Of a stretch of 64,000 nt of DNA, positions 9,001 to 15,000 are shown piece by piece. The position numbers are program-made. This stretch comes from Escherichia coli. GTDB taxonomy: Bacteria; Pseudomonadota; Gammaproteobacteria; Enterobacterales; Enterobacteriaceae. Every line of letters begins with the position of its first letter. The first letter of the stretch is position 1. Location of the stretch: assembly GCF_003790525.1 (NCBI RefSeq), contig NZ_CP033635.1, one strand, 5' to 3'.

Positions 9001-12000
9001 TCACCGACCAGACCGACGGGATCTATCACCAGCCAGCCGCGACTGGAGAACATGATGTTTTCATGATGCAGATCGCCATGTAGCCCACGCAGTTCCGAGG
9101 CATTGCTCATCATTTGATCGGCTATAATCGCCGCGTGGACGTAGTCAGTTTGACAACCTGCGTTTTGATCATCGCGCGCCCGCTGAAACAAAGCTGCAAA
9201 GCGATCCCGGATCGGGAGAAGGGCAGAAGGCAGGGGTTCCTCAGATGCGGCATACAGCTTCGCCATTAGTTCCGCTGCAATTTCGGTCGCCTGGTAGTCG
9301 CCGTGCTCGGCAACGATGTGAGAGAGCATTCGCTCCCCGGCATATTCGAGCAACATCAGATTGTTCTCACGACCGAGCAACCGGACTGCTCCCCTCCCAT
9401 TGCGCCATACCAGATAGTCGGCCCCGCGCAGTTCATCAGCAATGTCTTCTATAGGTTTCAATCCCTTGACGATTGCAGGAGTCCCGTCTGGCAATGAAAC
9501 TTTCCAAACGAGGCTGGAAAAGGTGTCCGCAATGAGAACAGGTTGCGAAACGTGCCAATGAGCAGGAAAAACAGGCGGCATGAACATCAACCCCAAGTCA
9601 GAGGGTCCAATCGCAGATAGAAGGCAAGGCGTTCGCGGTCGGGGGCTTCGATCCCCAATACATTGAATAGGACAGCGAAGGCGCGCTCTGCTTCATCTGG
9701 CGCTGCCCAGTTCTCTTCGGCGTTAGCAATCATGAGTGCCAAATCGGCATAGCGATCTGCTGTTCCGAGCCGCCCAAGGTCGATCAGACCCGTGCATTGA
9801 AGAGTTTTAGGGTCCACCATGAAGTTCGGCATGCAGGGATCACCATGGCAAACAACCATATCGGTGCGCTCTTGGTCGAGCCGCACCGGTAGCTCTCGTT
9901 CGACACGAGCCAAAAGATCGAGCTGCGGCGTACTCTTGTCCTCGTCCGGTAAGAAGTCGGGATTGACGGCATTGCGGGACACCACATCAACGGCGCGTCC
10001 GAACATTCGCGACAGCCTGCGCTCAAACGGACATTGATCAACCGATAGGCTGTGAACAGCGCCAAGTTGCTGCCCCATTGACGGCCACGCTTTGAGCAAA
10101 TCCGCTCCAGACAGATCAGCCGCCGGTACTCCCGGAATTGCCGTTATCACCAAGCATGCACCCTCCTGTTCCTCCTGCCAGTTGATGACCTCGGGGCAAG
10201 CCACACCTCGACCTTTGAGCCAAATGAGGCGGTCACGCTCTCCAGCGAGCTCACCGCGGCGGGAAGCAGGTGCGATTTTCGCGAAGGCATGCCCGTCACC
10301 ACGTCGAAAAACAAAATCACCAGATTCTCCGCCTCTGACAGGCAACCAGTCAGAATGCGATTCACCAAAAAAAATATTAGTTCGATTCAATGGAGGTTCC
10401 TTCAGTTTTCTGATGAAGCGCGAATATAGAGAAATATCCCGAATGTGCAGTTAACGAATTCTTGCGGTTTCTTTCAGCGCCGCCAATACCGCCAGCCCGT
10501 CGCGCAAGGGGCGCGGCTCGTGTGTGCGGATGAAGTCAGCTCCACCTGCGGCGGCGGCAAGCTCTGCAGCGAGTGTCGCGGCCCCGACATCCCCCGGACC
10601 ACGGCCTGTGAGCGCGCGCAGAAAGGATTTGCGCGAAACAGACAGAAGCACCGGCAAATCGAAGCGCAGCCGCAATTCATCGAACCGCGCCAGCACCGAG
10701 AGCGAGGTTTCGGGAGCAGCCCCCAGAAAAAACCCCATGCCGGGATCAAGGACAAGGCGGTTGCGTTTGATACCGGCTCCCGTCAGCGCCGCGATGCGCG
10801 CGTCAAAGAACGCCGCAATGTGATCCATGATGTCGCCAGCGGGTGCCTCGCGCCGATCTGCCTGCCCGTCTTGCACCGAATGCATAACGACGAGTTTGGC
10901 AGATGATTTCGCCAATTGCGGATAGAACGCAGCGTCTGGAAAACCGCGAATATCATTGAGATAGGCCACACCACGCGACAAGGCATAGGCTTGCGTCGCG
11001 GGTTGATAACTGTCGAGCGAGACGGGAATGCCATCTGCCTTGAGCGCGTCCAGCACCGGCGCGATACGCGCGATTTCTGTGTCGGACGAAACAGGCGCGG
11101 CGTCGGGATTGCTGGATGCCGGACCGAGGTCGATCACATCTGCCCCCTCGGCCATCAGCTTACGCGCCTGCGCAATGGCTGCGTCTGGCGCCAGATACCG
11201 GCCTCCATCGGAGAAACTGTCCGAGGTTATGTTGACGATGCCGAAAATGATGAGCGATTTATTCATGGGGGCTTCTATAATAATAATAATCGAGCATGAG
11301 TCTCATACGGATGCTCGGGTCGAAAGGGAATCCCCAGGCGAGTAACCTGTTTGCGGTGATCCATTAGCTGCAGGAGCAGAATAGCATACATCTGGAAGCA
11401 AAGCCAGGAAAGCGGCCTATGGAGCTGTGCGGCAGCGCTCAGTAGGCAATTTTTCAAAATATTGTTAAGCCTTTTCTGAGCATGGTATTTTTCATGGTAT
11501 TACCAATTAGCAGGAAAATAAGCCATTGAATATAAAAGATAAAAATGTCTTGTTTACAATAGAGTGGGTTTCCGGTGCTCCTTTGACACTCTCTCCATAT
11601 CCCTCAGGTCCGGCACCAACAGATACCACGTTATTTTCTCCCGACACCTGTGAGCCATGGCCCAGAGCTACAGAGCCTGAAGAATTTTCTATTCCAGCCC
11701 ATCCCCCAATAGCAACACTCTGCTGTGAATTAAGTACCTCAGCGCTCTTACCTATGGCAACACCATATTTTGACTCAGCCTGACCGGCATCCCTTCCCAG
11801 GGTGACACTGTGTGGAGAATTATACACTCCCGAAAAAGAGCCAAACTGAAGACTTCCTGGTGAATCCATGTTAAAAGCGCCACCTCCCAAAAGGAAAGTG
11901 TTATTAGCTGTACCAGTTGAATTCGTAATAAAAGAGTTTTCTCCAATCAGTAAGCTGGAAGAATTAGCATCAACAGGCCCTGTCAAAACAGCCTGAGCCT

Positions 12001-15000
12001 GAGCCGAGAGCAGCAGGGCCACACTCACTGCCAGCGCGCTTTTCTTTAAAAAAGCATCACGTCTTTTAAGCATTCTGTTATTCTCCTGTATTATTACTTC
12101 ACCAGCCAGAACGGTAGTGCGGAGCAAAAATACAGTGATAAGAATCCTCTTTTATTAATTTAATAATGCCAGGAATATTATTGTGTATAATATGCGACCT
12201 CAATTTAAGCAGCAGAAAACGACTGGCATTAAAATCATTAAATTATAAACATATACAACTTTGTAAAGGTGGTTATAATAAACCTGATTACTTTAACGTC
12301 TGTATACCTGCACTGCTGATATCACAAAACAATAAAAATCCTGGTTAATATCTCTGATGATTGAATGAGAAATTCACGATGTCTGGTGAGAATTCTGTTC
12401 AAAACGAGGAATGCAGACGTACATGTGGCAGGCATGGACTTCTACCAATTTAACTTTTTTCCTTCCTTGTATTTACACATTGCACATTTTGCGCTACAAA
12501 AATTTCACGTGGCACGCACCACGTGATCCGTAGAAAAGCCTCTTGTTACGAATTTCGTAAACCGCACGTCTGTCTGGTCGTGCGGATTTTTTATCCGTCA
12601 ACTTCACATGAAACCCGCCAGAGCACTGTTTCCGGATTCAGACATCAGGCATATTATTATCCACGATGTCGTGAACAAGATCACACTTTTGCAATTCCTT
12701 TATTGATCGAAAGCAGTTAATCACGGAAATTAATTACCGGAGTGAAAGCATTTGCTATATAAACATTCCCAGAAGACATCTTCATGTTGAATATTATTCC
12801 CTTATTGACTAGCCCCTCTGACAGAATTTCAGAGGGGGTTTTTTATCAGTTTCACCATCCAACCCTGTACGCCAGAATGGTTTCACTGTCACTCAGTTCT
12901 GCTATTGCCTTTTTCATCTCCCTTTACCTTACGTTCTGCCAGAGTCTGAGCCATTTGAACAGGAGGTTATCATTGATATCGTGTTCCCGGGCAATACGGG
13001 CAACAGAGGCTCCTGGTTGCAAAACCAGTTTAACCATTTGAAGTTTAACTCATTTGAAAATGATCTGCGGGGTTCTGCGGATAATGTTTTTGCTCCATAA
13101 CAGGCGCCCACCAGTTTGAAAAGGTGGGCACCTACGTTACCAATACTGGCTTAATGGATACATACGGCGGTCGGTTCTTACGGTAAAACGACACAACCAA
13201 ACGCTTCTTATCCTGCAATGAACTGCTTTATTACCGAGTTTAGTGACCGCACAGACACTCACTTTTAAGAAAAACAGAATGGTAAACAAACTCCATGAAT
13301 TACAATAGCTCTCTGGCTGCCGCCACAATAGCTTGCGCGGTTAACCCGTACTCTCTCTGTAAAAAGTCCTGAGTTTCAACCTGGCCATACCGCTCTTTAA
13401 CCCCCACCCGACGCATGGGCACAGGACAAGTTTCTACAAGCACTTCAGCAACTGCTGAACCTAATCCATTATGAATACGGTCATGACTCCAATTAGTTGA
13501 ATTAGGGGTATAATAGCCACTTTTAAGGTTCTTTCATGGTCACAGTTAACCTTCATTGCTCCTGTTGCCAGTCCGTTCAGGTTTACCGTCACGGGAAGAA
13601 CCCAAAGGACATGATCGATTTCGCTGCCGTGACTGTCATCGAGTGCTTCAGCTCACTTACCGTTACGAGGCCCGTAAACCGGGAGTTAAAGAGCAAATCA
13701 CTGAAATGGCTTTCAACGGTGCCGGAGTTCGCGATACTGCCCGTACGCTGAAAATCGGCATTAATACTGTCATCCGGACTTTAAAAAACTCTCGCCACGA
13801 AGAATAACGTCATACCCGGTCGCTCATGCTGATATGGCTCTCATCTGCGAACTTGATGAGCAATGGAGTTTTGTCGGCAGTAAAGCGCGACAGCACTGGC
13901 TCTGGTACACGTACAACACGAAAACTGGTGGCGTTCTGGCCTACACTTTTGGCCTACGGACTGATTAAACCTGTCGTGAATTGCTGGCGCTGCTTGCCCT
14001 TTTACCATCGGTATGTTGACCACTGACGAATGGGGTAGTTACACCAGAGAGTTACCGAAGGAGAAGCATCTGACTGGTAAGATTTTTACTCAGCGCATTG
14101 AGCGCAACATCTACCTCTGAGAACCCGAATCAAACGTCTGGCCCGCAGAACTATCTGTTTCTCGCGCTCTGTAGAACTTCATGAAAAAGTCATCGGTGCC
14201 TTTATCGAAAAATATATGTTCTACTAATTGGAGTCACCACCTTCGTTTGTTTAAAGAACCTGCTGGTCCTGCCATTAATATTACCTGCTGATTGCTTCAC
14301 ATCCGGATTCCTCGCACTGCGCGCGGGTTATTGTTTCGTTTTCGGCCACGGGGTCGCCAGGGCTCTGTTTGCAGGCCATGATGGCCTGACCTGTACTGTT
14401 TCTCAGGCACTGAGATGTCCGTTTACGCCATTTGTTCCCGGATATCCTTAACCTCTGACGTTTGTTCCCTGCCCCTCTGTCTGATAACGAATACGCTCAC
14501 AACGCACAGTACTGAACAATACCGACAACAACATGTCTTACATGAAATTCGCTGTAACATCCACCGGAAAACATTTTCAGATATCGGATGAGGTACTACT
14601 TCCATTGACAGCGCGAGGTAACAAAATTGATGGTAACTCTGACCATTAACCGTAAACCGCAGGGTATTTTCAGTAAATCACCGGCAACGCCGCTGCAGGA
14701 TAAAACGGACACAGCATACAAAATGAAGGCCGGTGACCAGATACCACAGTTGAACGATAAACAGAAACCTGCTGATAAAACACCGTGGCGACATGACAAA
14801 ACGCCAGAGCAAAAACCGTAAGCGCATTATTCGTCTTGTGGAACTCTGGCCTGAGTCATTCAACCGGGAAAAAAACAAAACCACTTAAAGTGGGGATACC
14901 TGACGACCTGATACAGGATATCGCCATCCGAGAACTGGCGTTTGGCGCTGGTACATTACATGCAGCAGTGGCGTCTTATGTGCAGTCTCCGCGCTATTAC

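Follow-up and report, generated by a model that had tools for sequence, protein, structure and literature searches.

A truncated YadA-like adhesin gene lies at the attR end of GIsul2 beside sul2 in Escherichia coli

The DNA analysed here is a 64-kb stretch of an Escherichia coli contig (NZ_CP033635.1; hereafter the window), in which sul2 is preceded by an open reading frame (ORF) of the same orientation. The initial annotation had described this ORF, at 11507-12073, as a truncated adhesin gene of about 190 aa. The ORF is present and encodes 188 aa, with its strand corrected to minus. The features of the locus are as follows:

2603..3505, plus strand: 3′ part of ISCR2/CR2 with its oriIS-side flank (GIsul2 positions 13110-14013), adjoining papI and bounding the resistance module on the left
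5943..6249, plus strand: 5′ end of a second ISCR2/CR2 copy, from the terIS / attLR half-site (CGGAGTGACGGGCACTGGC), located by BLAST of GIsul2
10410..11568, minus strand: right end of GIsul2 (element positions 14302-15460), with sul2 and its upstream region to attR, located by BLAST of the GIsul2 of strain ABW_A19 (99.7% identity)
10451-11266, minus strand: sul2, from the ORF list, on the same strand as the truncated gene (the stump)
11507..12073, minus strand: chimeric ORF of 188 codons plus stop (ATG 12073-12071, stop 11509-11507)
11507..11565, minus strand: foreign tail of 19 codons plus stop, from the right end of GIsul2, 5′ of sul2
11562..11569, no strand: GIsul2 attR core GAGTGGGT, with the putative crossover triplet GGG (11566-11568) common to the adhesin gene
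11566..12073, minus strand: DNA matching the 5′ 508 nt of an intact trimeric-autotransporter gene, compared base by base with the intact-gene loci L003 and L004 (BLAST boundary 11566)
11615..11956, minus strand: YadA-like head (beta-roll), aa ~40-153, from repeats, profile matches, AlphaFold and Foldseek
11615-11809, minus strand: five 15-residue head repeats, aa 89-153, from the repeat spacing
11990..12073, minus strand: predicted signal peptide, aa 1-28 (MLKRRDAFLKKSALAVSVALLLSAQAQA, followed by V), from hydropathy and an AxA cleavage motif
12082..12087, minus strand: ribosome-binding site AGGAGA, by sequence inspection
12074..12750, minus strand: original 5′ flank (promoter region) of the adhesin gene, kept and collinear with L003 and L004

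The chimeric ORF begins with codons 1-169 of the adhesin gene and ends with 19 foreign codons (HSIVNKTFLSFIFNGLFSC). Its product is RefSeq WP_000919994.1, and an index of public assemblies lists this exact protein in 11,602 blocks. As had been noted earlier, there is a good ribosome-binding site; it reads AGGAGA and lies 8 nt 5′ of the ATG. A simple sigma-70 scan of the minus strand 5′ of the ATG found no sigma-70-like site. The signal peptide that had been proposed is also predicted by our analysis: the leader appears to be of the Sec type, and its basic n-region (MLKRRDAFLKK) leads into a hydrophobic core (SALAVSVALLLSA; Kyte-Doolittle maximum of 2.49 over 11 residues) and then AQA/V. This leader is identical to that of intact adhesins of 513 and 546 aa.

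The ORF had further been said to carry S-x-A-x-G head repeats. The head itself was confirmed, but the strict form of the motif occurs only twice (SVAIG at 119 and SVALG at 134). A head-type motif, [SGV][VA][AST][ILV]G, is present five times with an exact 15-residue period (aa 89, 104, 119, 134 and 149). On the 188-aa ORF, YadA_head of Pfam stayed below its cutoff (18.1 bits vs 25) and NCBIfam gave zero matches at E<=1, so that a purpose-built head profile was needed. This profile was built from 30 head segments and compared with solved structures in the PDB, where it matched the heads of the trimeric autotransporters SadA (E=8.6e-44), BpaC (1e-40), YadA (1p9h, 1.1e-31) and EibD (2.5e-25). The AlphaFold model (pLDDT 91.8) has short regular strands, and a Foldseek search with the predicted head returned EibD first, together with BpaC, BoaA and YadA 1p9h (TM 0.60, rmsd 2.8 Å). 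The profile matches, together with the predicted fold, indicate that the head of the ORF is a genuine YadA-like head and not a chance resemblance. In this search for YadA-like domains, which had been suggested as a check, the stalk and anchor were found in the intact homologues only.

Residues 1-169 of the ORF are identical to those of intact 513- and 546-aa YadA-like adhesins of other E. coli, and intact proteins with the identical N-terminus are 480, 513 or 546 aa long. These proteins continue with a YadA_stalk (neck) at aa 171-192, a coiled-coil stalk and a YadA_anchor at aa 455-513 (PF03895, 59.5 bits; YadA anchor 2lme, E=2.4e-17). A helix predicted at residues 159-186 in the structure model agrees with the neck/stalk position in the intact homologues. 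The alignment to intact homologues that had been called for located the breakpoint: nt 1-508 of the ORF equal the intact genes save one synonymous SNP at window 11609, and from 11565 downward the divergence is complete. The break falls at codon 169/170, one residue ahead of the neck, and the neck and coiled-coil stalk are missing from the stump. The C-terminal YadA anchor is absent from the ORF and from the whole 64-kb window, in which we also found no remnant of the adhesin 3′ part or of the sigma-like gene downstream of it. The stump is thus the front third of a YadA-like trimeric autotransporter (type Vc) adhesin gene, in line with the initial annotation. The intact protein is ~24% identical to YadA and ~25% to Saa, and our literature search found no published characterisation or named E. 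coli adhesin matching it. The region upstream of the stump differs from that of L003 and L004 only at 12599/12658 and from 12753 onward. The mismatch patches at 12753-12838, and at 12220-12319 in the related genome L017, were considered as an invertible switch, but they are indel or divergent patches with no inversions.

The unrelated tail that had been noticed where the sul2 upstream sequence begins consists of the last 19 codons, which come from that sequence; >4,000 plasmids have the identical DNA upstream of sul2. The junction reads ACAATAGAGTGGG/TTTCCGG, and the sequences part after GGG in every context compared. The published att core of GIsul2 is 5′-GAGTGGGA-3′ (PMC9376610), and the attR core in the window, GAGTGGGT, matches it at 7/8 bases. 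The point where the stump meets the sul2 upstream region is the attR boundary of GIsul2. Judged by its position the break is not random, since it coincides with the GIsul2 att core. Beyond GGG, the target in the adhesin gene, CCGGCGGGTTTCC, bears a poor likeness to the canonical core (CGGCGGGT vs GAGTGGGA). Integration of GIsul2 at a reduced GGGA site is known for IncC plasmids (ARI-B; PMC9376610).

In E. coli ABW_A19, a complete GIsul2 of 15,460 bp, as long as the reference element (AZPD01000036 2108-17567), lies between the two halves of the same adhesin gene. The order there is sigma-HTH, adhesin 3′ part, CGGCGGG/AATGATT (attL), int-alpA-repA-repC-trbJKL-TA-ars-resG-ISCR2-glmM'-sul2, GAGTGGG/TTTCC (attR) and then the same 188-aa ORF. 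When the two flanks are joined with one GGG, they give exactly the intact adhesin gene. Of GIsul2, the window holds the 1,159 bp right end and two ISCR2 fragments, the second starting at the terIS sequence quoted in PMC9376610, and floR, tet(A) and strAB take the place of glmM'. BLAST of the ABW_A19 element found no int or backbone of GIsul2 in the window, and the remnant is therefore not autonomously mobile. In related genomes with the same attR junction the left-hand content varies: it is glmM' only in L009, L007 and L017, where the canonical sul2-glmM'-ISCR2 order is found, a complete ISCR2 with resG in L015, and the floR-tet(A)-strAB form with a complete ISCR2 in L021. Since the same junction is combined with different left-hand contents, it is older than the multiresistance cluster.

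The stump had been counted as a second disrupted surface-adhesin gene besides papA, and papA is indeed cut at about codon 92 (window ~1183), ~1.4 kb from the module boundary at 2603. In L017 the pap operon is intact and the sul2/adhesin junction is already present. By this genome comparison the truncation of papA is a separate event, independent of the adhesin break. Papers on ST167 describe an 8.9-kb resistance cluster within a 69.2-kb insertion and do not describe the adhesin remnant.

In a survey of 5,426 complete E. coli genomes, the junction of attR with the adhesin 5′ part was found in 230, the uninterrupted adhesin gene in 51 and the junction of attL with the 3′ part in 9. The 230 genomes make up ~39% of the 596 chromosomal matches to a junction-centred query. 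Plasmid pNDM5_LS003 was rejected as the ancestral form: its junction type occurs in 0 chromosomes and its protein is a singleton. The start of a P4-type integrase lies beyond sul2 in many plasmids (L005, L006 and L010). It was considered as the GIsul2 int in a circular-form joint and was rejected because the left end of GIsul2 itself reads GGGAATGATTCC; this integrase remnant therefore belongs to the target beside another insertion, one of a plasmid lineage.

We consider it very probable that the stump was made by insertion of GIsul2 into the adhesin gene and by later deletions, and that it is now a pseudogene. From the sequence of the site we infer that the GIsul2 tyrosine integrase recombined att (GAGTGGGA) with the weak secondary target CCGGCGGGTTTCC. 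The crossover would have occurred in GGG, within codons 169/170 and exactly at the head/neck boundary, leaving the 5′ half (promoter, signal peptide and head) beside attR and sul2 and the 3′ half (neck, stalk and anchor) beside attL and int. As a handful of comparison genomes suggests, later deletions, reaching papI, would have stripped GIsul2 of ~13 kb, from int as far as the 5′ part of ISCR2, and would also have removed the adhesin 3′ part and the downstream sigma-70-region-4-like gene. In place of the glmM' segment (ISCR2 to sul2), virD2-floR-lysR-dISCR2-tet(A)-tetR-strB-strA may then have been acquired, probably through homologous recombination with an ISCR2/sul2 region on a plasmid. That the frame stays open for 19 codons into GIsul2 DNA would be pure chance. 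If the stump were expressed, a head fragment of ~160 residues would be exported by Sec to the periplasm. As the fragment lacks both the trimer-stabilising neck and stalk and the beta-barrel anchor for passage of the outer membrane, it would have no access to the surface, and degradation would be its most likely fate. The stump is most likely a non-functional pseudogene.

It could be argued that the stump has been co-opted, either by promoter read-through into sul2-strA-strB or by a periplasmic head fragment that disturbs other trimeric adhesins in the cell. The stump has the same orientation as sul2-strA-strB, a scan of the minus strand from 12073 to 11266 revealed no terminator-like hairpin, and several carrier genomes have further YadA-like genes (2-6 places in the record). 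However, sul2 in the window still has 302 bp of its own 5′ flank (99.7% match to GIsul2), as it does in thousands of plasmids, and the stump copies are all so near-identical that selection is unreadable from them. On these sequences co-option seems unlikely.

Illegitimate (microhomology) recombination or rolling-circle transposition of ISCR2 would explain the junction with no integrase, by an arbitrary break 5′ of sul2. Only GGGT is common to the window, the sul2-side parent and the adhesin parent at the joint; ISCR2 fragments lie within the resistance module, and its left boundary at 2603, with dISCR2 against papI, is a ragged internal break. Against this, the sul2-side end is the published attR core to the base, and the same end bounds thousands of other contexts. 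Moreover, sul2 is found at the oriIS side of ISCR2, which is not mobilised under the established IS91-type model (see also the introduction of PMC9376610). The complete GIsul2 with its matching, reciprocal attL junction in the same adhesin gene largely refutes this route, which we regard as very unlikely.

In very many database records the 188-aa ORF is named "hypothetical protein" or "Tat pathway signal sequence protein", and UniRef lists the protein for 39 Enterobacterales taxa. Taken at its word, the second name, which stands on many RefSeq and UniRef copies, would make it a functional Tat-exported periplasmic protein, and its N-terminus does have RR and then FLK. In the Tat consensus S/T-R-R-x-F-L-K, one residue separates RR from FLK, whereas the leader of the stump (K-R-R-D-A-F-L-K) has two, one residue too many. 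The 513- and 546-aa adhesins begin with the identical signal peptide, no NCBIfam model matches at E<=1, and beyond the leader the protein consists of an adhesin head with 19 accidental residues, which leaves Tat export highly improbable. That ~188 aa is the native length, the objection raised by the initial annotation itself, has the open frame as its sole support and virtually no chance of being right, as the intact 480-, 513- and 546-aa forms share the N-terminus (the same first 169 residues in the latter two) and the tail is GIsul2 DNA.

GIsul2 and the CR2-sul2 unit were reportedly described by Nigro & Hall in 2011 and by Harmer et al. in 2017. They are also treated by Zhang et al. 2022 (PMC9376610). 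The locus resembles GIsul2 in the att core GAGTGGG at the boundary of the stump, in relatives that hold sul2, glmM' and ISCR2 in the published order along with a complete 15,460-bp copy between the target halves, and in the use of a reduced GGG(A) secondary target, as in IncC ARI-B. It differs in that the target is an adhesin coding sequence on a genomic island instead of the 3′ end of guaA, and in that the window copy is without integrase. With the YadA-like adhesins (YadA, SadA, BpaC, BoaA and UspA1) the gene shares the predicted signal peptide and the beta-roll head with [SG]VA[IL]G repeats, and the intact homologues also share the neck (RRIINVSDG...TDAATVGQL), coiled-coil stalk and 4-strand anchor; the window copy, in contrast, ends at the head/neck boundary. 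The intact homologues are sometimes named 'immunoglobulin-binding protein', their stalk and anchor are 37-62% identical to EibA, C, D and E, and the EibD head is the top Foldseek match of the predicted head. However, the tblastn similarity to Eib is limited to aa ~299-488 of the intact homologue, a region missing from the window, the predicted head is 27% identical to the solved EibD fragment, and Eib genes are prophage-borne whereas this gene lies on a genomic island. As with yadA of Yersinia pestis, a pseudogene, and with other adhesin genes that have been inactivated, a surface adhesin gene has been reduced to a putatively non-functional remnant, by a frameshift there and here by insertion of a resistance island and deletion.

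The stump itself is an ordinary remnant, and nothing new was learnt about adhesin function. It seems unlikely that CCGGCGGGTTTCC is a preferred, repeatedly hit and reversible secondary att site of GIsul2 and that the stump promoter adds to sul2-strAB expression in the carriers (~4% of E. coli); if the site were of this kind, strains with a complete GIsul2 could toggle the adhesin by integration and excision. The 188-aa ORF deserves to be flagged as a YadA-like adhesin pseudogene fragment fused to the attR end of GIsul2. Its presence points to a chromosomal site that sul2 very commonly occupies in E. coli. The junction is a precise, PCR-able marker for this site, and it shows that the multiresistance region grew from one GIsul2 insertion. 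Our literature search found no report of GIsul2 in an adhesin gene, so that a known type of element is seen here at a previously unreported secondary integration site. The position of this site within a coding sequence supports the published idea of a minimal GGG(A) core for the integrase.

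The open reading frame (ORF) at the sul2 junction is co-oriented with sul2, strA and strB. The features referred to here are as follows.

ATG 12073-12071, stop 11509-11507, minus strand: truncated adhesin ORF, 188 codons
12082-12087, minus strand: ribosome-binding site AGGAGA, 8 nt before the ATG
10451-11266, minus strand: sul2
9587-10390, minus strand: strA
8751-9596, minus strand: strB
1087-1491, minus strand: truncated papA, break near 1183
10410-11568: GIsul2 positions 14302-15460
5943-6249: GIsul2 positions 12167-12473
2603-3505: GIsul2 positions 13110-14013

The ribosome-binding site noted in the initial annotation was found, as was the signal peptide: the N-terminus, MLKRRDAFLKKSALAVSVALLLSAQAQA/V, has what appear to be all three regions of the Sec type. 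The proposed S-x-A-x-G head repeats were recovered in a looser form: the strict motif occurs only twice, and five SVAIG-type motifs (aa 89, 104, 119, 134 and 149) follow each other at exactly 15 residues. A frequent database name of the ORF is "Tat pathway signal sequence protein". This name is not supported: the motif RRDAFLK exceeds the Tat consensus by one residue, and the same leader also begins full-length adhesins. The chromosome of E. coli Sanji (ST167) is 99.99% identical to window 1-32599 and carries the ORF as "hypothetical protein" WP_000919994.1; the Sanji genome paper reports an 8.9-kb resistance cluster within a 69.2-kb insertion and does not describe the adhesin remnant.

When searching 5,426 complete E. 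coli genomes at the DNA level, the same 5′ sequence was found within genes annotated "YadA-like family protein", which encode 513 aa in strain CS5L and 546 aa in strain 24A16CRGN010. The truncation is therefore real, and a native short form is contradicted by these homologues. The two forms differ by one extra 33-residue stalk repeat, RDELKAEGDSLRGEIGGVYRDARAHTDSQVTAV; the intact adhesins (proteins P0001-P0046; intact genes at L003:10960-12501 and L004:10861-12501) fall into classes with lengths near 480, 513 and 546-548 aa. Alignment to the intact genes placed the breakpoint at codons 169/170: nt 1-508 of the ORF are the same, save one synonymous SNP at window 11609, and divergence is complete from window 11565 downward. 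Because the break lies one residue ahead of the neck motif RRIINVSDG, the window encodes only the signal peptide and head. The intact proteins continue with the neck (YadA_stalk, aa 171-192) and YadA_anchor (aa 455-513, 59.5 bits), and at the C-terminus they match the solved YadA anchor 2lme (E=2.4e-17). The rest of the 64-kb window was found to hold nothing of the stalk or anchor, nor of the sigma-70-region-4-like gene. This gene, directly downstream of the adhesin gene, encodes a 151-aa sigma-70 region-4 helix-turn-helix protein (WP_000884153.1; L003:10443-10898, minus strand). It is present by every intact or 3′-half adhesin copy examined, was lost from the window with the 3′ half, and may be a dedicated regulator.

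The Pfam score for the head was below threshold, and distant relatives were therefore collected for a profile (338 matches, mostly very large repetitive adhesins; 30 head segments aligned). Against the PDB, this profile matched SadA (8.6e-44), BpaC (1.1e-40), the YadA head 1p9h (1.1e-31) and EibD (2.5e-25), which, together with the neck and anchor of the intact homologues, bears out the trimeric-autotransporter character first proposed. For residues 29-215 of the intact protein, the AlphaFold model (pLDDT 91.8) predicts a regular short-strand roll leading into the neck and a long helix, and the best Foldseek matches of the model were the heads of EibD, BpaC, BoaA and YadA. The intact protein is only about 24% and about 25% identical to YadA and Saa, respectively, whereas its 37-62% identity to EibA, C, D and E is limited to the C-terminal stalk and anchor. 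No published characterisation of it was found in our literature search. Window 11990-12400, which covers the upstream region and the signal-peptide coding part, is 89-98% identical to many other E. coli 'YadA-like' genes, the heads of which do not match that of the window. On sequence comparison, the locus may have kept a conserved 5′ end while its passenger domains were swapped.

The initial annotation placed the start of the unrelated tail at the sul2 upstream sequence. This boundary is the attR end of GIsul2, an integrative sulfonamide-resistance island. A reading of the joint as 4 bp of microhomology was given up for the att core and the reciprocal attL junction. The GIsul2 att core is 5′-GAGTGGGA-3′ (Zhang et al. 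2022, PMC9376610), secondary integration at GGGA has been reported, and the CR2 terIS GGGAGTGACGGGCACTGGC was placed within a third att site, attLR (PMC9376610). The window reads ACAATAGAGTGGG/TTTCCGG, so that the attR core itself forms the boundary on the sul2 side. In the intact adhesin gene the target site is CCGGCGGGTTTCC, with a proposed crossover at GGG. An attR at the adhesin 5′ part predicts a reciprocal junction, and this was found. Matches to the intact gene on the 3′ side only stop at GGG, where the adhesin 3′ part adjoins a tyrosine integrase; next come alpA, repA, repC, trbJKL, a toxin-antitoxin pair and ars genes. In E. coli ABW_A19 the order is sigma-HTH, adhesin 3′ part, attL (CGGCGGG/AATGATT), GIsul2, attR (GAGTGGG/TTTCC) and the same 188-aa ORF. 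Its GIsul2 of 15,460 bp has the size of the reference copy (AZPD01000036 2108-17567), and the flanks plus one GGG give exactly the intact gene. APEC E19035 is another strain with a complete copy of the element. No mention of the adhesin gene as a GIsul2 target was found in the literature searched.

The sul2-side sequence (11200-11572) occurs in 4,451 plasmids, and 29 of the 29 top-listed sul2 plasmid matches end at one and the same position, attR. Beyond attR, the three sul2 plasmids read in detail, L005, L006 and L010 (e.g. L010 9371-9470), continue with TATCGG, then with ~29 codons from the start of a P4-type integrase (MLTDTKLRNLKPRDK...), and then with an inverted repeat of the Tn21 family with IS5075. 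These plasmids may show another insertion context of the GIsul2 end, itself very widespread.

Among the 5,426 genomes, 301-bp queries centred on the junction detected the uninterrupted adhesin gene in 51, the attL/adhesin 3′-part junction in 9 and the attR/adhesin 5′-part junction in 230; there are carriers in Salmonella too. Only the three listed pieces of GIsul2 remain in the window, and its integrase gene int was absent when the two were compared. Among relatives with the same attR junction, dISCR2-glmM'-sul2 directly adjoins papI in L009, L007 and L017, of which some keep an intact pap operon and some do not; L015 has a complete ISCR2 with resG, and L021 the floR-tet(A)-strAB form with a complete ISCR2. 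In the simplest order, integration of GIsul2 into the adhesin gene would have come first. The left part of GIsul2 and the adhesin 3′ part would then have been lost as far as papI, and last the floR/tet(A)/strAB segment would have taken the place of glmM'. Upstream of the adhesin gene, same-junction carriers differ densely at window 12753-12838, a ~27-bp indel patch, and L017 has a ~100-bp divergent patch at the equivalent of 12220-12319. Neither patch is an inversion; recombination or separate integration backgrounds may lie behind them.

The initial annotation counted papA as another disrupted adhesin gene. Both genes are indeed cut, by independent events. The native part of papA ends at about codon 92 (…AFKQGQA), where unrelated sequence takes over, and homology to an intact pap operon stops at 1183; the edge of the resistance module, at 2603, is about 1.4 kb away. 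In L017 the pap operon (papA-H-C-D-J-K-E...) is intact although the adhesin/sul2 junction is already there; papA was therefore cut later, in a separate event. A papI-family ORF (92 aa, window 2402-2680) crosses the papI/dISCR2 junction at 2603. As it does so, its last ~25 codons are probably ISCR2-derived, which would make it another chimeric ORF end.

The IncI-gamma/K1 plasmid pNDM5_LS003 carries window 1-5941, 9 bp (TGATCTGCT; L001 7992-8000) and window 11570-20599, which means that about 15 kb of the chromosomal island has been captured. It lacks exactly the stretch from the CR2 terIS/attLR half-site to attR (window 5942-11569, with tet(A), tetR, strAB and sul2). With its 9-bp filler, the joint falls short of a clean att hybrid and would fit an imprecise attLR-like/attR deletion. 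No complete E. coli genome was found to have this junction type, the ORF of which is a singleton.

In type Vc secretion, a head without neck, stalk and anchor can neither trimerise stably nor cross the outer membrane. On this ground we regard the ORF as a pseudogene, its frame staying open for 19 more codons by chance. The adhesin upstream region is kept, and no terminator-like hairpin was found on the minus strand between the ORF and sul2; judged from the sequence, read-through into sul2 is possible. The ORF is an ordinary insertion-generated pseudogene and GIsul2 itself is well described. What is added is that the junction is a GIsul2 attR, placed at a new secondary site which E. coli very commonly carries.
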